Shown here: positions 48,387 through 61,308 of the stretch, piece after piece | Numbering within the stretch: position 1 is the stretch's first letter | Layout of the letters: every line of letters begins with the position of its first letter | Source: Escherichia coli | Lineage (GTDB): Bacteria > Pseudomonadota > Gammaproteobacteria > Enterobacterales > Enterobacteriaceae | Strand: one strand, 5' to 3' | Assembly (NCBI RefSeq): GCF_016026235.1 | Contig: NZ_CP065613.1 | Length of the DNA stretch: 64,000 nt | The notes under the pieces: generated by a model | The model's input: only the letters and a program-made list of their open reading frames with translations | Told to the model about the DNA's origin: nothing | Databases searched by the model: none | Program-made: the position numbers and the translations under genes

Positions 48387-48428
48387 GTTTAGCCGGATAA
48401 TGCATTGGATCCGGTTTACATCTTTACA

Positions 48429-49448
<1,020 letters not shown>

Positions 49449-50675
49449 TTATCCTTTTACGCACACCACCTGACGCAGGGTGTAGATAACTTCCACCAGA
49501 TCGCTTTGTGCCGCCATCACCGCATCAATATCTTTATACGCCATCGGGATTTCGTCGATCACTTCGGCATCTTTACGGCATTCCACATGCGCGGTAGCAC
49601 GAATTTGATCTTCCACGCTGAACAGTTTTTTCGCTTTAGTACGGCTCATTACCCGCCCGGCACCGTGGCTGCACGAACAGAACGACTCTTCATTTCCCAG
49701 CCCACGGACGATAAAGCTTTTTGCTCCCATCGAACCGGGAATAATTCCATATTGACCAGCACGCGCAGACACCGCGCCTTTACGCGTCACGTAGATCTCT
49801 TCACCAAAGTGCTGTTCTTTTTGCACATAGTTGTGGTGACAGTTGATCTCTTCCATCGCCAGCGTTTGTGGCTGTCTGACCGTTTTCTGCGTAATGCTCT
49901 GCAACGCCGTTACCACGTTTTCCATCATCGCATCGCGGTTAAGGCTGGCGAAAAGCTGCGCCCAGGCCACGGCTCTTAGGTAATCATCAAAGTATTCCGT
50001 ACCTTCCATAAAGTACGCCAGGTCGCGCGATGGCAACGTTTCAAGCTGGTCCTGCATCTCTTTTTGTGCCAAATCGATAAAGTAAGTCCCGATGGCGTTA
50101 CCAATTCCGCGTGAACCGGAGTGCAGCATAATCCACACCTGGTCCGACTCATCAAGGCAGATTTCAATAAAGTGGTTACCCGTTCCCAGCGTTCCCAGGT
50201 GTTTATAGTTGTTAGTGTTAAGGAAACGCGGATATTTTTGCGTTAACCACTGATAACCGGCTTCAAGCTCAGCCCATTTCGCATCGACGTTAACAGGCGG
50301 GTTTTCCCATGCGCCTTTATCACGTTTACAACGGCCAGTGGTACGTCCGTGCGGCACCGCAGTTTCAATCGCCTGACGCAGCTCTGCCAGGTTTTCAGGC
50401 AGGTCTGCCGCCGTTAACGCGGTACGCAGCGCGTTCATTCCACAGCCAATATCCACGCCCACCGCCGCCGGAATAATCGCCCCTTTGGTCGGGATCACGC
50501 TACCAATGGTGGAACCTTTACCCAGGTGTACATCAGGCATTACCGCAATATGTTTGAAAATAAACGGCATCTTCGCCGTATTAATAAGTTGCTGACGCGC
50601 ATCGGCTTCTACCGGCACGCCTTTGGTCCACATTTTTACCGGGGCATTTTCAATGGTCAGTAATTCGTAATTCAT
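49449..50675 (-). CDS. rtcB: RNA-splicing ligase RtcB
   Basis: Track ORF trimmed to ATG at 50673-50675 (MNYELLTIENAPVKMWTKGVPVEA..., 408 aa); this start is consistent with the sigma54 promoter placement. Confidence 0.95.
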   Translation of the reverse strand: MNYELLTIENAPVKMWTKGVPVEADARQQLINTAKMPFIFKHIAVMPDVHLGKGSTIGSVIPTKGAIIPAAVGVDIGCGMNALRTALTAADLPENLAELRQAIETAVPHGRTTGRCKRDKGAWENPPVNVDAKWAELEAGYQWLTQKYPRFLNTNNYKHLGTLGTGNHFIEICLDESDQVWIMLHSGSRGIGNAIGTYFIDLAQKEMQDQLETLPSRDLAYFMEGTEYFDDYLRAVAWAQLFASLNRDAMMENVVTALQSITQKTVRQPQTLAMEEINCHHNYVQKEQHFGEEIYVTRKGAVSARAGQYGIIPGSMGAKSFIVRGLGNEESFCSCSHGAGRVMSRTKAKKLFSVEDQIRATAHVECRKDAEVIDEIPMAYKDIDAVMAAQSDLVEVIYTLRQVVCVKG

Positions 50676-50711
50676 TTTGTTTTTCTCTTTCGTTGTTTGC
50701 TGTCGTGATAA

Positions 50712-50728
50712 TTGCAACCGTCGTGCCA
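50712..50728 (-). promoter_or_regulatory. sigma54 (-24/-12) promoter of rtcBA
   Basis: The minus strand reads TGGCACGACGGTTGCAA, an exact fit to TGGCACG-N4-TTGCA, about 40 bp upstream of the rtcB start and adjacent to the divergent sigma54 activator gene rtcR. Confidence 0.85.
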
Positions 50729-50862
50729 GAAAATTAAATAAGCAGATTAATTTTTTAATTCATTGTTTTTAAATAGGTTAAATCTTTACGTCCGTAAACG
50801 GAGATTTTCCACAAAACCAATTCACCGATAATGAAATATCGTCTTTTATAAGGATATCTAAG

Positions 50863-52461
50863 ATGCGTAAAACAGTGGCTTTTGGCTTTGTCGGAACGGT
50901 GCTGGATTATGCCGGGCGCGGCAGTCAGCGCTGGTCGAAATGGCGTCCGACACTCTGTTTATGCCAGCAAGAATCGTTGGTCATCGATCGACTGGAATTA
51001 TTGCATGACGCCCGCTCGCGCTCGCTATTTGAAACGCTTAAACGCGATATCGCCAGCGTTTCGCCAGAAACAGAAGTGGTGAGCGTTGAGATTGAACTGC
51101 ATAACCCGTGGGATTTCGAAGAGGTTTACGCTTGCCTGCATGATTTCGCCCGTGGTTACGAGTTTCAGCCAGAAAAAGAAGACTATTTAATTCACATTAC
51201 CACCGGCACCCACGTCGCGCAGATTTGCTGGTTTCTGCTGGCGGAAGCGCGTTACCTGCCCGCCCGGCTGATACAATCTTCACCTCCGCGCAAAAAAGAA
51301 CAGCCGCGCGGCGCAGGTGAAGTGACGATTATCGATCTCGATTTAAGCCGTTATAACGCCATCGCCAGCCGCTTTGCCGAGGAACGCCAGCAAACGCTTG
51401 ATTTTCTTAAGTCCGGCATTGCCACGCGTAACCCCCACTTCAACCGCATGATTGAGCAGATCGAAAAAGTGGCGATCAAATCCCGCGCGCCGATTCTGCT
51501 TAACGGTCCAACCGGCGCGGGCAAGTCATTTCTGGCGCGACGCATCTTCGAGTTAAAACAGGCGCGGCATCAGTTTAGCGGCGCGTTTGTGGAAGTGAAC
51601 TGCGCCACCCTGCGCGGCGATACCGCCATGTCGACGCTGTTTGGTCATGTAAAAGGCGCGTTTACCGGGGCGCGGGAATCTCGTGAAGGTTTATTACGCA
51701 GCGCCAACGGCGGAATGTTGTTTCTTGATGAGATTGGCGAACTGGGCGCAGACGAACAGGCAATGCTGCTTAAAGCCATTGAAGAAAAAACCTTTTATCC
51801 GTTTGGCGGCGATCGCCAGGTGAGCAGTGATTTTCAGCTTATCGCCGGAACGGTGCGTGATTTGCGCCAGCTGGTTGCCGAAGGAAAATTTCGCGAAGAC
51901 CTGTACGCGCGGATCAATCTCTGGACCTTCACCCTGCCGGGGCTGCGCCAGCGCCAGGAAGATATTGAACCTAACCTGGATTATGAAGTGGAGCGCCACG
52001 CCTCACTCACTGGCGACAGCGTGCGTTTTAACACCGAAGCGCGGCGTGCCTGGCTGGCCTTTGCGACATCTCCCCAGGCAACATGGCGCGGTAACTTTCG
52101 CGAGCTTTCTGCCAGCGTCACGCGGATGGCTACCTTTGCCACTAGCGGACGCATCACTCTGGACGTGGTTGAAGATGAGATAAACCGTCTGCGCTATAAC
52201 TGGCAGGAGAGTCGCCCCTCCGCGCTTACGCAGCTACTGGGCGCAGAGGCAGAAAACATCGATCTCTTCGACCGTATGCAACTGGAACACGTTATCGCTA
52301 TCTGCCGCCAGGCAAAGTCGCTTTCCGCAGCCGGACGCCAGCTTTTTGACGTTTCGCGCCAGGGCAAAGCCAGCGTCAATGACGCGGATCGGCTACGCAA
52401 ATACCTGGCGCGTTTTGGTCTGACGTGGGAAGCATTGCAGGATCAGCACAGCTCCAGTTGA
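50863..52461 (+). CDS. rtcR: sigma54-dependent transcriptional activator of rtcBA
   Basis: 532-aa ORF with an AAA+ sigma54-interaction domain ([16 protein letters not shown]..., GAFTGA loop). Confidence 0.95.
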
Positions 52462-53201
52462 ATATGGTGGTCCGTCAGCACCTGCATCACGCTTACTGGC
52501 GGCGGGGCGTCGGTGTAGACGGCATCTACCATGCTGATGCTGCCCATATTGACCATCGCGTTACGGCCAAATTTCGAGTGATCGACAACCAGCATAACGT
52601 GGCGCGAGTTCTCAATAATGGCGCGTTTGGTGCGAACTTCGTGGTAATCGAACTCCAGCAGCGAGCCGTCGCTATCGATGCCGCTTATCCCCAGAATGCC
52701 GAAATCAAGGCGGAACTGGGAGATAAAATCGAGCGTCGCTTCGCCAATGATCCCGCCATCGCGGCTGCGTAATTCGCCACCGGCGAGAATAATACGGAAA
52801 TCCTATTTTACCATCAGCGTGTTAGCAACGTTAAGATTGTTGGTGACAATGCGCAAATTGCTGTGATTGAGCAGCGCGTGCGCCACCGCTTCCGGCGTGG
52901 TGCCGATATCGATAAACAGCGTCGAGCCATTGGGGATTTGCTCCGCCACTTTGCGGGCGATGCGCTCTTTTTCTTCGGTCTGGGTGGCTTTACGATCGTG
53001 CCACGGCGTGTTAACCGAACTGGAAGGCAGCGCCGCACCGCCATGATGGCGCAGGATCAGGTTTTGCTCCGCCAGCTCATTGAGGTCGCGGCGAATAGTC
53101 TGCGGGCTGACGGAGAAGTGCTCCACCAGCTCCTCGGTACTGACATAACCCTGCTGTTTAACCAGTTCGATAATACCGTTGTGACGTTGTGTTTGTTTCA
53201 T
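52443..53201 (-). pseudogene. glpR: glpR (DeoR-family repressor of the glp regulon) interrupted by an in-frame TAG at codon 133
   Basis: From ATG 53199-53201: MKQTQRHNGIIELVKQQGYVSTEEL...NLNVANTLMVK, then TAG (52803-52805), then same-frame DFRIILAGGELRSRDGGIIGE... to the stop at 52443. That is 252 codons in all; I recall intact GlpR reading ...MVKEDFRII..., so Glu is replaced by a stop. Confidence 0.8.
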
Positions 53202-53217
53202 TTCTAAATCCCTGGAA

Positions 53218-54060
<843 letters not shown>

Positions 54061-54092
54061 TTATTCCACACAAAAGGGGACAGTATAAAGCG

Positions 54093-54497
<405 letters not shown>

Positions 54498-54557
54498 TTA
54501 TACATATCACTCTAAAATGTTTTTTCAATGTTACCTAAAGCGCGATTCTTTGCTAAT

Positions 54558-54575
54558 ATGTTCGATAACGAACAT
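54558..54575. promoter_or_regulatory. GlpR operator in the glpE/glpD divergent control region
   Basis: ATGTTCGATAACGAACAT is a perfect palindrome matching the GlpR operator half-site pattern TGTTCGAT/ATCGAACA, 34 bp upstream of the glpD ATG. Confidence 0.75.
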
Positions 54576-54608
54576 TTATGAGCTTTAACGAAAGTGAATG
54601 AGGGCAGC

Positions 54609-56114
54609 ATGGAAACCAAAGATCTGATTGTGATAGGTGGCGGCATCAATGGTGCTGGTATCGCGGCAGACGCCGCTGGACGCGGTTTATCCGTGCTGAT
54701 GCTGGAGGCGCAGGATCTCGCTTGCGCGACCTCTTCCGCCAGTTCAAAACTCATTCACGGTGGCCTGCGCTACCTTGAGCACTATGAATTCCGCCTGGTC
54801 AGCGAGGCGCTGGCTGAACGTGAAGTGCTGCTGAAAATGGCCCCGCATATCGCCTTCCCGATGCGTTTTCGCCTGCCACATCGTCCGCATCTGCGCCCGG
54901 CGTGGATGATTCGCATTGGTCTGTTTATGTACGATCATCTGGGTAAACGCACCAGCCTGCCGGGATCAACTGGTTTGCGTTTTGGCGCAAATTCAGTGTT
55001 AAAACCGGAAATTAAGCGCGGATTCGAATATTCCGACTGTTGGGTAGACGATGCCCGTCTGGTGCTCGCCAACACCCAGATGGTGGTGCGTAAAGGCGGC
55101 GAAGTGCTTACTCGTACTCGTGCTACTTCTGCTCGTCGCGAAAACGGCCTGTGGATTGTGGAAGCGGAAGATATCGATACCGGCAAAAAATATAGCTGGC
55201 AAGCGCGCGGCCTGGTTAACGCCACCGGCCCGTGGGTGAAACAGTTCTTCGACGACGGGATGCATCTGCCTTCGCCTTATGGCATTCGCCTGATCAAAGG
55301 CAGCCATATTGTGGTGCCGCGCGTGCATACCCAGAAGCAAGCCTACATTCTGCAAAACGAAGATAAACGTATTGTGTTCGTGATCCCGTGGATGGACGAG
55401 TTTTCCATCATCGGCACTACCGATGTCGAGTACAAAGGCGATCCGAAAGCGGTGAAGATTGAAGAGAGTGAAATCAATTACCTGCTGAATGTGTATAACA
55501 CGCACTTTAAAAAGCAGTTAAGCCGTGACGATATCGTCTGGACCTACTCCGGTGTGCGTCCGCTGTGTGATGATGAGTCCGACTCGCCGCAGGCTATTAC
55601 CCGTGATTACACCCTTGATATTCATGATGAAAATGGCAAAGCACCGCTGCTGTCGGTATTCGGCGGTAAGCTGACCACCTACCGAAAACTGGCGGAACAT
55701 GCGCTGGAAAAACTAACGCCGTATTATCAGGGTATTGGCCCGGCATGGACGAAAGAGAGCGTGCTACCGGGTGGCGCCATCGAGGGCGACCGCGACGATT
55801 ACGCAGCTCGTCTGCGCCGTCGCTATCCATTCCTGACTGAATCGCTGGCGCGTCATTACGCACGCACTTACGGCAGCAACAGCGAGCTGCTGCTCGGCAA
55901 TGCGGGGGCGATAAGCGACCTCGGGGAGGATTTCGGTCATGAGTTCTACGAAGCGGAACTGAAATACCTGGTGGATCACGAATGGGTCCGCCGCACCGAC
56001 GATGCCCTTTGGCGTCGCACAAAACAAGGCATGTGGCTGAATGCGGATCAACAATCTCGTGTGAGTCAGTGGCTGGTGGAATATACGCAGCAGAAGTTGT
56101 CGCTGGCGTCGTAA
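54609..56114 (+). CDS. glpD: aerobic sn-glycerol-3-phosphate dehydrogenase (FAD)
   Basis: Track ORF trimmed to ATG at 54609 (METKDLIVIGGGINGAGIAADAAGRGL..., 501 aa) with an FAD-binding GxGxxG. Confidence 0.97.
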   Translation: METKDLIVIGGGINGAGIAADAAGRGLSVLMLEAQDLACATSSASSKLIHGGLRYLEHYEFRLVSEALAEREVLLKMAPHIAFPMRFRLPHRPHLRPAWMIRIGLFMYDHLGKRTSLPGSTGLRFGANSVLKPEIKRGFEYSDCWVDDARLVLANTQMVVRKGGEVLTRTRATSARRENGLWIVEAEDIDTGKKYSWQARGLVNATGPWVKQFFDDGMHLPSPYGIRLIKGSHIVVPRVHTQKQAYILQNEDKRIVFVIPWMDEFSIIGTTDVEYKGDPKAVKIEESEINYLLNVYNTHFKKQLSRDDIVWTYSGVRPLCDDESDSPQAITRDYTLDIHDENGKAPLLSVFGGKLTTYRKLAEHALEKLTPYYQGIGPAWTKESVLPGGAIEGDRDDYAARLRRRYPFLTESLARHYARTYGSNSELLLGNAGAISDLGEDFGHEFYEAELKYLVDHEWVRRTDDALWRRTKQGMWLNADQQSRVSQWLVEYTQQKLSLAS

Positions 56115-56165: not shown

Positions 56166-56771
56166 TCATTGTAAATAATTGAATAACGGCCCCTGAGCTA
56201 AAATCGCCAAACTTAAGCACGTTACCCAATCGCCCCACTTCTTCCTCTGGTTTCTATTTTTTCTGCACCAATGGCAATAATATCCCAATGCAAAACCAAG
56301 CTGTGCACTAATCGGGCCGACAAAATCAGTCCAAGGCTGCGGCCAAAAAGGGGAAAAATTCAGGGGAGGCCAGACAAACGTCAGAAAGAAATTTCGGATA
56401 TTTTCCAGCAACGCTGATTTCTCTGGAGAAATATAAAGAATGAAATTCGAGAGAATTAACCAGAAATAGACCGGCGAAAAGACCAGCCAGCAATGCAGTC
56501 TGTTTTTTAATTCAGGAGGCGTTCTGCGGGAGAATTGCCAACCGATGCCAGCCATTACACTGAAAAAAAGTGCATATTCAACCATTAACTCAAGTTGTAA
56601 TTCCTGAAGAGAAATACGCACAACCAGGAGCGGAAAGGAGAATATTATTTCTGCCAGAAAAGTTAACGTGAATATAAGTACGGCTAAGACAATAACCGTC
56701 GGCCATACCAATAATGGCACGATAACAAAACCGAGAATTACAGGGGGAATATAAAGCCGGAATTTAATCAT
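56166..56771 (-). CDS. hypothetical small polytopic membrane protein (island ORF 4 of 4)
   Basis: 201-aa ORF MIKFRLYIPPVILGFVIVPLLVWPTVIVLAVLIFTL...; about four hydrophobic segments; CHWC motif near the C-terminus; starts 2 nt after the upstream ORF stop; AT-rich codon usage. Confidence 0.6.
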   Translation of the reverse strand: MIKFRLYIPPVILGFVIVPLLVWPTVIVLAVLIFTLTFLAEIIFSFPLLVVRISLQELQLELMVEYALFFSVMAGIGWQFSRRTPPELKNRLHCWLVFSPVYFWLILSNFILYISPEKSALLENIRNFFLTFVWPPLNFSPFWPQPWTDFVGPISAQLGFALGYYCHWCRKNRNQRKKWGDWVTCLSLAILAQGPLFNYLQ

Positions 56772-56773
56772 TT

Positions 56774-57541
56774 TTATTTTCCTGGTGATTCGGATGATGC
56801 GTCATACATCGCGCATAAACACTCATCAATTATCCAGTCATCTTCCCAGACCTGATATTCTGTCATTGGTTCGGGCTGTTTTAGCGGGTTCTCAATCGCT
56901 TGCCGCGCTCTTTCTTTCAGTAAAGGATGATTATTTCTAGCCCAGGCATTGATTTGGGTGGTAATGACGTTATCGATATCGTCCTGGTTATCTCTGATAT
57001 AATCCTCACAATATCTGTTCAATAAACAGGCAAGAGAAACGGTCGACCAAAAGCCGGGAACTGAATTAATGGCATCCAGCAATGGCGCAAGAGCGATATC
57101 GGCACGGAAAAACATTTCCAGCATATACTGTAATTCGACAGCTTCATCGCCGGATACCCAATCAGTCATATACTGGCAGGCAAATCGCTGTAAAATTGCC
57201 CGTTCATCCGCACGCCAGTTTTCTTTGTTGGCAAGGTTGATACGGCGCAGAGAAAAAACTACGTGAATATTGTCAAAATGCCCCTGTGCAACAAATTCCA
57301 GTAAACGCGGCAGAAAATAGCGGACCTCATCGCTATTTTGCGGATCAGGCCCTGGGCTACTATTCCAGGCATTGATTAAGGAATACGGGATCGCTCGTAA
57401 CGATGTACTCCGTAATGCCTTTTGTTCCTGCTGACTCAGGCAATATTCACAACAAACCACAAATTTCTGCGGCACCCGATAACGACGAAAGGTGTGATAA
57501 ATCTGCTCAATTAATGCCTGCATGGCGGGGCTGGGTTGCAT
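56774..57541 (-). CDS. hypothetical soluble protein with cysteine motifs (island ORF 3 of 4)
   Basis: 255-aa ORF MQPSPAMQALIEQIYHTFRRYRVPQKFVVCCEYCLSQQEQ...; N-terminal CC-x2-C and C-terminal ECLC motifs; 2-nt gap to both neighbours; no family recognised. Confidence 0.6.
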   Translation of the reverse strand: MQPSPAMQALIEQIYHTFRRYRVPQKFVVCCEYCLSQQEQKALRSTSLRAIPYSLINAWNSSPGPDPQNSDEVRYFLPRLLEFVAQGHFDNIHVVFSLRRINLANKENWRADERAILQRFACQYMTDWVSGDEAVELQYMLEMFFRADIALAPLLDAINSVPGFWSTVSLACLLNRYCEDYIRDNQDDIDNVITTQINAWARNNHPLLKERARQAIENPLKQPEPMTEYQVWEDDWIIDECLCAMYDASSESPGK

Positions 57542-57543
57542 AG

Positions 57544-58254
57544 TTACCCCCTCGCCCGCTGATCGCGTGTAAACGGTTGATAGACAAAACGAGCATTCGC
57601 CGCGTTCAGGCGAATAAGGGCGCTACGCGAAAGGGAAAAGCTGGGGCGAATGCAACTATTGCAGTCTCGACAGCTTTCCTCTGCGCAATTTTCCACTGAG
57701 TAATGACGCGTGTAGAGTTTCAGTTCGGCCTGCTTATCGCGAAATCCGCGTAAACTGTTATTGTTATGAAATTTCCAGGCATCTTTAAAGACCTGAAAGA
57801 TATAGACATCCTCAATCCAGGAGTCACATTTTTTAAGCGGGCGCTTTGCTATTATCACCCGCTCATCCGGATTTAGCATCGCCGTAAATTGTACGGTGAC
57901 GTCATTTGTCGTGTTCAGGTCACATTGAACATCTGGTACATCACTGATATAGGGGTCAAATCCAAAATCAGCACCACAGGCACAAAGACGGCTAATGGTG
58001 GCGGTATCGAGGGAAAATCCCGGCCATACCTTGCTGGAGGTTAAGCCAATATTTAATGTGACATCATATCGAAGCAATCCCTCAAGACCGTCAGCACCGA
58101 CGAACTTTTCCCCTTCATCCAGGGCCTGGTTAATAAGTTGCTGAACAATGCCTTCATCCCAGTATGCCGATTTGCAGTTGGCAATCGTAATATCCACGCC
58201 TGTGAAGGGATCAGTACCGGCAAGGCTTGCAAATAATGTATTAACTAATTCCAT
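57544..58254 (-). CDS. hypothetical soluble protein with C-terminal C-x4-C-x2-C-x2-C motif (island ORF 2 of 4)
   Basis: 236-aa ORF MELVNTLFASLAGTDPFTGVDITIANCKSAYWDEG... ending ...ENCAEESCRDCNSC...; no family recognised. Confidence 0.6.
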   Translation of the reverse strand: MELVNTLFASLAGTDPFTGVDITIANCKSAYWDEGIVQQLINQALDEGEKFVGADGLEGLLRYDVTLNIGLTSSKVWPGFSLDTATISRLCACGADFGFDPYISDVPDVQCDLNTTNDVTVQFTAMLNPDERVIIAKRPLKKCDSWIEDVYIFQVFKDAWKFHNNNSLRGFRDKQAELKLYTRHYSVENCAEESCRDCNSCIRPSFSLSRSALIRLNAANARFVYQPFTRDQRARG

Positions 58255-58269
58255 TTTTATTATCCAGCT

Positions 58270-59787
58270 TTAAGGTAGCGTCTTATACATCGGGACATAA
58301 CCTACATCTTCCACCAAACTCTGTCCCTGCGGCGTTAAAAACCACTCCAACAATTTTTGTGTCTCTGACGTCGTATTTTCCCGCGTTACCATAAAGGCAT
58401 CGACGATATAGGGATATTTGCCGTTGCGAATGTTTTCGGCAGTCGGTGCAATACCGTTAATCGCTAGCAGTTTTATATTTTTATCGGCGTTCATTTGTGT
58501 TGCGTAATAACGGAAGGTGTAACCTATTGCGTTGTTTGTATTACGGTATTCGGCAACGACTTTAATCATTCCCTCCATCATACTTGCCACTTCTGTTTCC
58601 TGCGGCGAGATCATGCGGACATTTTTCATGACCTGGGATTGCATCACCGTCTGGCTGCCAGAGTCTTCCGGGCGCTGCCAGGTCTGGATCTCCTGATCGT
58701 TACCGCCAACAGTACGCCAGTTGGTAATTGCACCACTGAAAATGTCACGCACCTGTTGTTCAGTCAGGGAATTAACCGGATTATCCGCATTGACGATGAA
58801 AACGAATGCTTCACGGGCAAAGGGGGTGTACAGCAAAGTGACACCAGATTCCTTTGCACGTTTTTTTTGCCCACCGGAAGGTTGCGCCACAAAAATAATA
58901 TCAGCATCGCCCTTAACGATTTTGTTATATGCTTCTGGCGTACGAGAGTTTTCCAGATAATCCCAAACGTGAAAATCCTCTGGTATTACACTTAATGCAT
59001 AAAATGCAGAAGCATAAATTGGGTACGCAGCCGTGGCGCCATCGATTCGCGGCCAGTTTTGCCTAAACTGAATTTGCGGTTTGCCACGCAGTGGCGTCAG
59101 TCGATTATTGAGTTTATCGGGTCGCCAGGCCCAGATATCAATATTTTCGCGTACACCGACACCAGGATTTTGCTGCTTATATAAATGGGCCTGATACCCA
59201 GCGACAATACCAAGTAAGAGAAGTAGAAACAGGAGTAAGTTACGGCAACGTAGTCCGGACGTGCCGGATAAAGGATATCTGGTCGGCCAGGCGTATCCCA
59301 GCGAAAAACTGATATGCGCCCCAACGGGAATAATGACCATCCACCAGTACTCACCACCCACTAATGAGACTAAAAAAACGCCCAACCAGGGAAGCATAAG
59401 GTTTGCCAACCAACCAGCTCCCATCTGGCGAAATTGATAATCTGCCAGATGTAGCGTGATTATCCAGCCAACCAGGGTTAATAGCGCGGGTAAGAGAAAA
59501 AAGCATTGCCGCCAGACGGCTATTTCTCTGTTTTCTGGCGCGCTATCACCGGCCCACACGCGACCAGAGAAAAATATTATTACCGCCCCCAGCGTCAGCA
59601 TAAAGACGTTGAGTAGAAGATAAATTGTTGGCGTGATAAGGATATTACAAACTTCAATAATACCGGTAAGCCCGACACCCAGCATGGCAACAACCGCTGC
59701 CAAAAATTGCGCCAGTATGGGGATGCCGAAAAAAGTCATTATCAGCGAGGTCAAAATCCATTTTCTATTTGGCATCATTCTGTCCAT
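58270..59787 (-). CDS. hypothetical membrane-anchored protein with C-terminal PstS/PBP-like periplasmic domain (island ORF 1 of 4)
   Basis: 505-aa ORF: the N-terminal ~200 aa contains about six hydrophobic helices; the C-terminal region (...ADNPVNSLTEQQVRDIFSGAITNWRTVGGNDQEIQTWQRPEDSGSQ...) resembles the phosphate-binding-protein-like (PstS) fold signature. ATG at 59785-59787 is preceded by AGGAAG. Confidence 0.65.
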   Translation of the reverse strand: MDRMMPNRKWILTSLIMTFFGIPILAQFLAAVVAMLGVGLTGIIEVCNILITPTIYLLLNVFMLTLGAVIIFFSGRVWAGDSAPENREIAVWRQCFFLLPALLTLVGWIITLHLADYQFRQMGAGWLANLMLPWLGVFLVSLVGGEYWWMVIIPVGAHISFSLGYAWPTRYPLSGTSGLRCRNLLLFLLLLLGIVAGYQAHLYKQQNPGVGVRENIDIWAWRPDKLNNRLTPLRGKPQIQFRQNWPRIDGATAAYPIYASAFYALSVIPEDFHVWDYLENSRTPEAYNKIVKGDADIIFVAQPSGGQKKRAKESGVTLLYTPFAREAFVFIVNADNPVNSLTEQQVRDIFSGAITNWRTVGGNDQEIQTWQRPEDSGSQTVMQSQVMKNVRMISPQETEVASMMEGMIKVVAEYRNTNNAIGYTFRYYATQMNADKNIKLLAINGIAPTAENIRNGKYPYIVDAFMVTRENTTSETQKLLEWFLTPQGQSLVEDVGYVPMYKTLP

Positions 59788-59870
59788 TCTTCCTGAATGA
59801 CGGAATTATACTCCCCGAGAACCCTCGCCCCCTCTGGACACTTTTCCGAAATGATGGCGAAAAAAAACGG

Positions 59871-59882
59871 GACCCTTTGGCC
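59871..59882. repeat. left copy of the 12-bp target-site duplication flanking IS4
   Basis: GACCCTTTGGCC, identical to 61309-61320. Confidence 0.9.
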
Positions 59883-61308
59883 TAATGCCAGTCAGTTAAG
59901 CAACTGACTGGCTCTTTTTCGGGGCTGTGGGGTATTTCCAGGGCCTCTCCTTTACCACTCTCGGGAAGGCCCTTCCCCTTCTCGTCGGTAATTTCACAAG
60001 TTGTCCCATACTTGCAAGATCGCGCATCAGCTCCGGTATACGTCCCGGTGAAGCGCCCTGCAATGTCATCAGCATTCTCATCACCATTCCGCATGATTCT
60101 GAGAAACTCAGTTGATTCGGCCAGTAACCTTTCAGATGTTCCGCCATTTTAATCATCTGATATCTCACCAGATTATAAGCCAGTAAGACACCCCACAGCT
60201 CTTGCTCCACAAGCTCCGGCTTTTTACTTCTCAGCGTCAGCCTGCTCAGTTGCATCGTCTGTTTTATCTCCCTGTATCCCAGTTCGATTTCCCAGCGATG
60301 ACTGTACAGATCCGCCATTTCTCCTCCGGGGAAGCGCATGGCGTCCGTCATCGACGTCAGCAGATGGCAGACTTTTCCTTTGCGCGTCACGGTCAGCAGG
60401 CGGGCTGTCACTTCATTTCCCAGTCCCGGCCACTTTTTTCGTGCCTGCGGGCTGGTTTTCAGCTTCACCAGATGATCGCCTTTACCCAGTTTTCTGAGCT
60501 CTTCATATTGCGCTCCCTTTCTGAGAGGTATCATCCAGTGGCGGTGTTCTCCCGCCAGGCTCCAGGCATTTAACAGTCCCAGTGAGTAATAACCTTTATC
60601 CATTAACGTCAGAGTGTTATCGCCGGTTTGTTCTATAAGTTGCTCAGCAAGCTCATTTTCGCTGTTCTTCATCGTGCCGAAGGCTGCAGCCGTCAGCAGA
60701 TGGCTGGTCAGTTCCATCTGGCAGACCATTTTGACCTGCGGGTAGAGCGCCGGGTTCCCGGCATGTGTCTGGCGGGGGAAGGCTGCATCGTTCTCTGGTG
60801 TATCCGGTGTGCGCCAGAACACACCATCGATGGCCAGCAGGGTCAGGCCGCACCAGTGCGGATGCGGCGTGGCGTTATGCCAGAGCTGCGCTGTTTTCGT
60901 GAACACGCGGCGGACAGCCTCACTTCCCAGGCGCTGGCGGGCCTGAATAACGGCACTGGGGGCAACGAAGGGGCGATTGCCCGGCAGCATGATGTCCAGG
61001 CGATTCACAATCTGGTGAAGAGGTTCTTTACGCTCAAGCGCCATGCCAACAATACACCAGACCATCATTTCGAGGGGAAGACGGCGCTTGCGTAGCGTTA
61101 CAGTACCTGATTCGGCAAGGCAACGAGAGATGAGTTCGGGGTCGAGGTAATCCCCCAGAGAAGTCAGTGGGTTACGCAGAGAATCGTAACGGGATACCAG
61201 ATCAAGAGCCTGTCCAATGTGCATAAAAAAATCCGGAAACAAGTGAGCGTTTCCGGATTCTTACACAGCCACTGGATCGGTCAACTGATCCTTAACTGAT
61301 CGGCATTA
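59883..61308 (-). mobile_element. IS4: complete IS4 insertion sequence (1426 bp)
   Basis: Terminal 18-bp imperfect inverted repeats TAATGCCAGTCAGTTAAG (left) and TAATGCCGATCAGTTAAG (right, reverse complement), 16 of 18 matching; one transposase ORF inside; flanked by a perfect 12-bp direct repeat; 1426 bp equals the canonical IS4 length. Confidence 0.95.
59896..61224 (-). CDS. insG: IS4 transposase (DDE)
   Basis: Track ORF 59896..61242 trimmed to [48 protein letters not shown]..., 442 aa, recognised as IS4 transposase InsG. Confidence 0.93.

Follow-up and report, generated by a model that had tools for sequence, protein, structure and literature searches.

The convergent genes rtcR and glpR share the last 19 bp of their reading frames in the window, the stretch of 64,000 nucleotides of the Escherichia coli contig NZ_CP065613.1 that was analysed here. 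This overlap is very probably a passive, evolutionarily tolerated meeting of two unrelated regulator genes and not a regulatory device. It is already known: it is long-annotated, species-wide and part of the standard E. coli annotation. A feature that the original prediction overlooked is that the window copy of glpR is a nonsense pseudogene, interrupted by an amber codon. Thus, in this strain, rtcR overlaps the remnant of a glpR pseudogene that is probably untranslated. The reasons for these conclusions are found in the geometry of the junction, in the way the overlap varies among enterobacteria while the end of GlpR stays fixed, and in the published information on termination in this region.

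Geometry of the overlap

The window region has the gene order malT / rtcA-rtcB / rtcR / glpR-glpG-glpE / glpD, and the features of the rtcR-glpR junction are collected in Table 1. The 19-bp overlap had been predicted with exact coordinates, as verified with the ORF list and the translations. The rtcR stop codon (TGA, 52459-52461) lies, as had also been stated, inside the final codons of glpR on the opposite strand, and the glpR frame is open to its own stop apart from the amber codon. That stop is the TGA at 52443-52445 of the minus strand (tca on the plus strand). On the RtcR side, the overlap consists of the codons for Q528-S532, the stop codon, and the third base of the D527 codon; on the GlpR side, it consists of the codons for Q248-C252, the stop codon, and the third base of the I247 codon.

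Table 1. Positions of the features in and around the rtcR-glpR junction (window coordinates)
Feature	Position	Strand	Basis	Remark
rtcR CDS (532 aa), sigma-54-dependent activator of rtcBA	50863-52461	+	ORF list, Pfam, RefSeq annotation	
glpR frame (252 codons + stop), DeoR-family glycerol-3-phosphate regulon repressor	53201-52443	-	translation, Pfam	
Tail-to-tail overlap of both frames (19 bp)	52443-52461	both		third codon positions coincide
Premature TAG at glpR codon 133 (Glu elsewhere)	52803-52805	-	translation	360 nt upstream of the overlap
Sigma-70-like site, TTAACG-18-TAAAAT, preceded by TG	52805-52834	-	consensus scan	pattern match only
Equivalent of MG1655 position 3559514 (highest Rho score)	52109	-	coordinate transfer	inside rtcR, 334 nt past the glpR stop
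Candidate rut, C-rich and G-poor glpR-strand RNA	52364-52480	-	78-nt sliding windows	C/G 1.3-1.4, modest; straddles the glpR stop

The proteins on both sides are well recognizable. The RtcR of the window is 99% identical to that of MG1655 and carries the Pfam domains RtcR (residues 2-185), Sigma54_activat (187-354) and AAA_lid_14 (362-442), and the amber-repaired GlpR sequence carries HTH_DeoR (6-61) and DeoRC (74-231). The 3′ nucleotides are shared on opposite strands, which makes rtcR and glpR a convergent overlapping gene pair, and both partners are real, conserved coding genes up to the stops given above, the window copy of glpR being a pseudogene.

Occurrence in E. coli genomes

The same arrangement is a general property of the species. 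In the MG1655 annotation, rtcR (3558268..3559866) and glpR (3559848..3560605) also overlap by 19 bp. In FDAARGOS_943, which is the complete genome closest to the window, the geometry is that of the window and glpR is annotated as intact, with 252 aa. A 30-mer placed across the overlap was found with at least 29 of 30 identical positions in 5,398 of the 5,426 complete E. coli genomes, and among the matches listed, both annotated genes cover it every time. Convergent overlaps are also not rare as such: one count for an E. coli reference genome gave 663 overlapping adjacent gene pairs, 75 of which are convergent (PMC4161906), so that the rtcR-glpR overlap is no statistical oddity.

Much longer overlaps seem to occur in a few strains. 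The plus strand of the window carries a 115-codon open frame antisense to glpR (52425-52772), and the C-terminal tails of rare 636-aa RtcR variants of E. coli (P0153 and P0157) match this frame, which implies an overlap with glpR of ~330 bp in those cases.

Conservation and origin of the overlap

In a scan with GlpR that used one genome per species, 80 enterobacterial loci were obtained. In 73 of them, rtcR is absent beside glpR, and malT is then mostly the gene directly opposite glpR. In the remaining 7 loci, the rtc module sits between glpR and malT, and rtcR overlaps glpR in every one of them. The overlap is 19 bp long in three Escherichia species (E. albertii and E. whittamii included), in Klebsiella oxytoca and in K. 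spallanzanii, while it amounts to 35 bp in Intestinirhabdus alba and to 4 bp in Superficieibacter electus. Protein searches added two further forms: the overlap with glpR is 4 bp in a 527-aa RtcR type, whose gene has a Ro60/rsr homologue as its neighbour, and 38 bp in a 536-aa type, Salmonella enterica by its source name. The former type, with its Ro60/rsr neighbour, is what we take to be a Salmonella-like arrangement. RtcR proteins ending in QHSSS, as in E. coli, were also found by protein search in sequences named Enterobacter sp. and Phytobacter.

The junction without the rtc module provides a useful comparison. In Citrobacter, Enterobacter, K. pneumoniae and Kosakonia, among others, glpR has the same invariant protein end and a convergent neighbour, malT. 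The two stops are, however, separated there: in the 12 rtc-less loci examined, they lie 7-63 nt apart, and the gap contains in most cases a hairpin or a REP-like palindrome, for example ACCGCCTTGCGGCGGTTTTT in Kosakonia, whereas rtcR and glpR meet without any spacer. In the rtc-bearing genomes, the comparable gap is the one between malT and rtcA, which is 42 nt long in the window. These two genes are convergent as well, and the palindrome CCGGATCCAATGCATTATCCGG lies within their gap (48387-48428). In the 536-aa RtcR type named Salmonella enterica, there is no such gap, malT and rtcA overlapping by 4 bp (locus L084, 573-576).

The two protein ends that meet in the overlap differ clearly in their constraint. 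Irrespective of an adjacent rtcR, each of the 80 loci encodes a GlpR with the C-terminus [I/L/V]QLELC, and the length of this protein is 252 aa in 78 of them. In an alignment of 97 diverse full-length homologues of RtcR, on the other hand, conservation ends at the column of L525, and the tail beyond this residue is 0-23 aa long, with a median of 6 and a value of 7 in E. coli; no conserved position was found among these homologues for residues 528-532. The idea that the E. coli tail is an abnormal extension was rejected, since its 7 residues are close to the family median. A length of 532 aa is shared by the RtcR proteins of several genera. The tail QHSSS is simply the antisense reading of the glpR codons CAA-CTG-GAG-CTG-TGC-TGA.

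The following course of events would account for these observations. Where the rtc module sits between glpR and malT, rtcR adjoins glpR without a spacer. The unconstrained tail of RtcR, a short stretch behind the DNA-binding region of the protein, would then run into the constrained end of glpR and continue up to the first stop codon in its frame. For Escherichia and a number of further genera, this codon is the TCA within glpR codons 247-248, giving the QHSSS tail and the overlap of 19 bp. Short convergent overlaps are believed to originate when a stop codon shifts. The rtcR-glpR pair resembles other short convergent overlapping pairs of prokaryotes in that the last codons are shared and the length shifts with the position of one stop, and nothing essential sets it apart from them, except for the unusual stability of the 19-bp form, which does not change between Escherichia and K. 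oxytoca, and for the fact that one partner is a pseudogene in the window. The common 4-nt overlap of two stop codons has the same third-position frame relation, and this is the form seen in the 527-aa RtcR type and in Superficieibacter. The junction is therefore a tidy example of how convergent overlaps form: the length drifts among 4, 19, 35 and 38 bp, and the end of the neighbour remains fixed.

The overlap nevertheless leaves a trace in the DNA sequence. The 15-mer CTGGAGCTGTGCTGA at the end of glpR is identical in all 6 loci with an overlap of 19 or 35 bp, as against 12 of the 73 rtc-less loci (Fisher p 6.7e-5; this value is not corrected for phylogeny, and the overlapping loci amount to about three independent lineages). 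This invariance in the overlapping loci indicates that the overlap does constrain the sequence. Dual coding explains it, and a functional element might also reside within CTGGAGCTGTGCTGA.

Some observations concern the rtc module itself. In Superficieibacter sp. 1612_C1 (L025), rtcB and rtcA are located between glpR and malT and no rtcR was detected there; this module may have lost its activator. Among the homologues listed, the closest named RtcR proteins from outside the Enterobacteriaceae (P0208-P0270) show ~70-76% identity and come mostly from Betaproteobacteria, such as Chitinimonas, Chitinibacter, Ralstonia and Caballeronia. Horizontal transfer is hinted at by these relatives and by the scattered distribution of the rtc module at the glpR-malT junction. 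Against such a transfer, the RtcR proteins of E. coli and K. oxytoca are 83% identical, a value similar to those of the flanking core genes.

A nonsense mutation in glpR

The amber codon of the window (context ...NTLMVK*DFRIIL...) truncates GlpR within the DeoRC sensor domain and leaves a product of 132 aa. Codon 133 is TAG in the window, GAG in FDAARGOS_943 and GAA in MG1655, and the only difference between the glpR sequences of the window and FDAARGOS_943 is A52805 in place of C. Among the 5,426 complete E. coli genomes, none contains the exact 61-mer around the amber codon. The 132-aa product was, however, found without any change on 107 public contigs, and a contig of run ERR3372598 agrees with the window at every position over 3.4 kb (51303-54701). 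An artefact of the window sequence is ruled out by these two findings.

The consequences of this mutation are of two kinds. One is that the distal codons of glpR, including those that overlap rtcR, are probably untranslated in this strain. Another concerns the regulon: as the genes of glycerol degradation are repressed by GlpR (PMC5442614), the glp regulon is probably expressed constitutively here. In this sense, the amber codon is a more useful fact about the locus than the overlap.

The MG1655 glpR is likewise a pseudogene, owing to a 1-bp deletion with a frameshift at codon 51. In run SRR18429019 (L088), which belongs to another E. coli lineage, GlpR is also cut at codon 133, in this case by a TAA that matches a G-to-T change at the equivalent of 52805; its contig differs from the window at 81 positions over 3.4 kb. 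From these alignments, nonsense at codon 133 through one and the same base in two lineages looks independent and recurrent. The GlpR protein cluster includes members of 131-185 aa, some of which are marked as partial by the source, and these short members suggest, without establishing it, that glpR is frequently lost. FDAARGOS_943 differs from the window at 4 positions in 7 kb and has an internal stop in glpG (window position 53919; position 4720 of L001), where the gene is annotated as a pseudogene; glpG is intact in the window. Thus, close relatives were hit differently within one glpEGR operon.

In the sigma-70-like site of Table 1, the T that closes the −10-like hexamer is the amber mutation, which thereby yields the extended −10-like sequence TGgTAAAAT. 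A site completed in this way could, in principle, drive transcription from inside glpR towards the overlap and the antisense strand of rtcR.

Termination of transcription around the overlap

The original prediction held that the junction leaves no room for separate terminators and that antisense read-through between the two regulators is possible. The first statement is right insofar as there is no intergenic space and no convincing intrinsic terminator nearby, but termination still takes place on the glpR strand of MG1655, namely by Rho inside rtcR. In the consensus scan, 8 terminator-like sites were found in the 4.1-kb region of 50500-54600, as compared with 5.9 ± 2.4 expected, and no intrinsic terminator was found on either strand within ~170 nt of either stop. 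The nearest matches, which are weak, lie at 52274-52260 on the minus strand and at 52955-52967 on the plus strand. A long stem, CGCGCCAGG...CCTGGCGCG, followed by TTTTGG on the plus strand (~52352-52419), was discarded as a terminator of rtcR because it is located upstream of the rtcR stop.

The geometry itself determines a minimum overlap of the transcripts. The stop codon of either gene forms the distal border of the overlap as seen from that gene, and a complete mRNA, having to include it, spans all 19 bp. The antisense overlap of two complete mRNAs is therefore obligatory and not merely possible, and full-length mRNAs that can be translated cannot end short of it on both strands.

How far transcription proceeds beyond this minimum is known for one strand. 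By DirectRNA-seq of MG1655 with and without bicyclomycin, a Rho termination region was assigned to position 3559514 on the minus strand and labelled 'antisense rtcR' (Adams et al. 2021; PMC7815308, Supplementary file 2). The upstream and downstream read numbers of this region are 154 and 29 without bicyclomycin and 153 and 256 with it, and its Rho score is 8.89 (p 2.7e-27; PMC7815308). The score derives from 800-nt windows and the source strain was K-12, so that the corresponding position in the window is approximate. Since this region lies well past the glpR stop, glpR-strand transcription runs into rtcR in MG1655, and since the downstream reads without bicyclomycin still amount to ~19% of the upstream reads, some antisense RNA over rtcR exists. 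The predicted read-through is accordingly real in MG1655 for the glpR strand, although limited by Rho, while cross-talk between the two regulators is unsupported. The MG1655 glpR being a frameshift pseudogene, these Rho data may not reflect a strain with an intact, translated glpR.

Among the many Rho regions of Adams et al. (2021; PMC7815308), the one antisense to rtcR is an ordinary case of an end located inside a convergent neighbour. For the rtcR strand, Supplementary file 2 of PMC7815308 has no Rho termination region, and the Term-seq tables of the same study contain no curated 3′ ends for glpR, rtcR or glpG. In the base composition, the glpR-strand RNA of 52480-52364 could be the Rho-loading region, and its position fits the downstream Rho region. 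Its bias of C over G is only weak, and it is listed as a candidate. On the plus strand, C/G values of at least 1.3 occur only in scattered 78-nt windows.

Since neither gene possesses an intrinsic terminator, both mRNAs have to continue into the partner gene and would end there. On the glpR strand, this has been demonstrated in K-12, where the end is Rho-dependent and lies ~330 nt past the stop; on the rtcR strand, termination would likewise occur inside the partner and would be Rho-dependent or diffuse. In the strain of the window, translation of glpR would stop at codon 133, leaving the glpR-strand RNA that crosses the overlap untranslated. Such RNA should be more exposed to Rho, and increased polarity would be expected. 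Both rtcR and glpR are thought to be weakly expressed, and interference between them is therefore probably negligible. On the whole, this is an ordinary convergent pair without a hairpin terminator, and the transcription past glpR into rtcR was already contained in the published table of Rho termination regions (PMC7815308).

Regulatory and other readings of the overlap

Antisense coupling with a regulatory role, either of the excludon type or by transcriptional interference, would mean that transcription of glpEGR and that of rtcR each lower the expression of the partner, through polymerase collision, through double-stranded RNA cleaved by RNase III, or through occlusion, and would link the glycerol regulon to RNA repair. 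This reading is very unlikely. It agrees with the overlap of the mRNAs by at least 19 nt, with the K-12 transcription of the glpR strand several hundred nucleotides into rtcR (PMC7815308), with the fact that the adjacency and overlap of rtcR and glpR are kept in every rtc-bearing enterobacterial locus examined, and with the unusual invariance of the overlap sequence. Nevertheless, the length of the overlap varies from 4 to 38 bp according to the chance position of a stop, 73 of the 80 species loci have no rtcR beside glpR, most of the read-through is removed by Rho, and the invariance is accounted for by dual coding alone. Moreover, glpR is inactivated in both MG1655 and the window, while rtcR is intact in both. 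An excludon consists of long overlapping transcripts that repress each other reciprocally, whereas the transcript overlap of rtcR and glpR is documented for one strand only. In the literature searched, the glp regulon and rtc are nowhere described as functionally linked or opposed; rtcR and glpR are named together only in gene tables, and the rtcR literature searched is silent on the junction. A passive overlap of two unrelated genes fits these findings better.

A slimmer chance is given to the view that the overlap is an annotation artefact, in which one of the genes actually ends earlier and no true coding overlap exists. In the window, this view has a certain basis, because glpR translation should stop at codon 133 and leave the distal codons probably untranslated. 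A 3′ end is, however, fixed by the stop codon and not by the gene-caller, both frames are open to their stops apart from the amber codon, and the full-length products are conserved in length, as described above for the 252-aa GlpR and the 532-aa RtcR. In strains with an intact glpR, the coding overlap is genuine, and for the species the conservation of both stops refutes the artefact view.

Collision of the two polymerases could also serve termination itself, as in the overlapping bidirectional terminators proposed from SEnd-seq, where converging polymerases would pause at a hairpin-encoding element between or within the 3′ ends and displace one another, so that defined, overlapping 3′ ends form independently of Rho. 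The likeness is that rtcR and glpR are a convergent pair without canonical terminators and that such terminators (Ju et al. 2019; the ynaJ-uspE model) also belong to convergent genes with 3′-overlapping transcripts; according to a preprint citing that study, they are reported to serve hundreds of E. coli genes (bioRxiv 10.1101/2022.10.23.513370). These terminators encode a hairpin, are Rho-independent and give sharp ends, whereas no hairpin was found at rtcR-glpR and the mapped end there is Rho-dependent and distal. In the RNA folds around the overlap, no hairpin with a U-tract was found on either strand: the z values were −1.9 and −2.0, and 13 and 8 of 200 shuffled sequences folded equally well on the two strands. 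A G+C-rich hairpin between an A-tract and a U-tract, which would characterize a bidirectional intrinsic terminator, is likewise absent at the stops, and sharp Rho-independent 3′ ends at a hairpin element, the mark of a collision-dependent bidirectional terminator, do not appear for glpR, rtcR or glpG in the Term-seq tables. The mapped end of the glpR strand is Rho-dependent and ~330 nt downstream, and the lack of curated Term-seq ends points in the same direction (PMC7815308). The frequent collisions that this kind of termination needs are also hard to reconcile with the supposed weak expression of both genes, and we regard it as highly improbable here. Equally little credence is given to the proposal that read-through from glpEGR into rtcR tunes RtcR in cis, with the −10-like site made by the amber mutation, if active, adding a transcript through the overlap; if it were true, raised transcription of the glp operon or weakened Rho would dampen the RNA-repair response.

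Neighbouring region

A difference from MG1655 was seen farther along the window. Between glpD and glgP, MG1655 has only yzgL, while the window carries at 56166-61242 four minus-strand ORFs (56166-59787) followed by an ORF at 59896-61242, which, by eye only, looks like an IS4-family transposase. A 24-kb query gave up to 34 matches per genome, and 215 matches were on plasmids, as expected for a mobile element.
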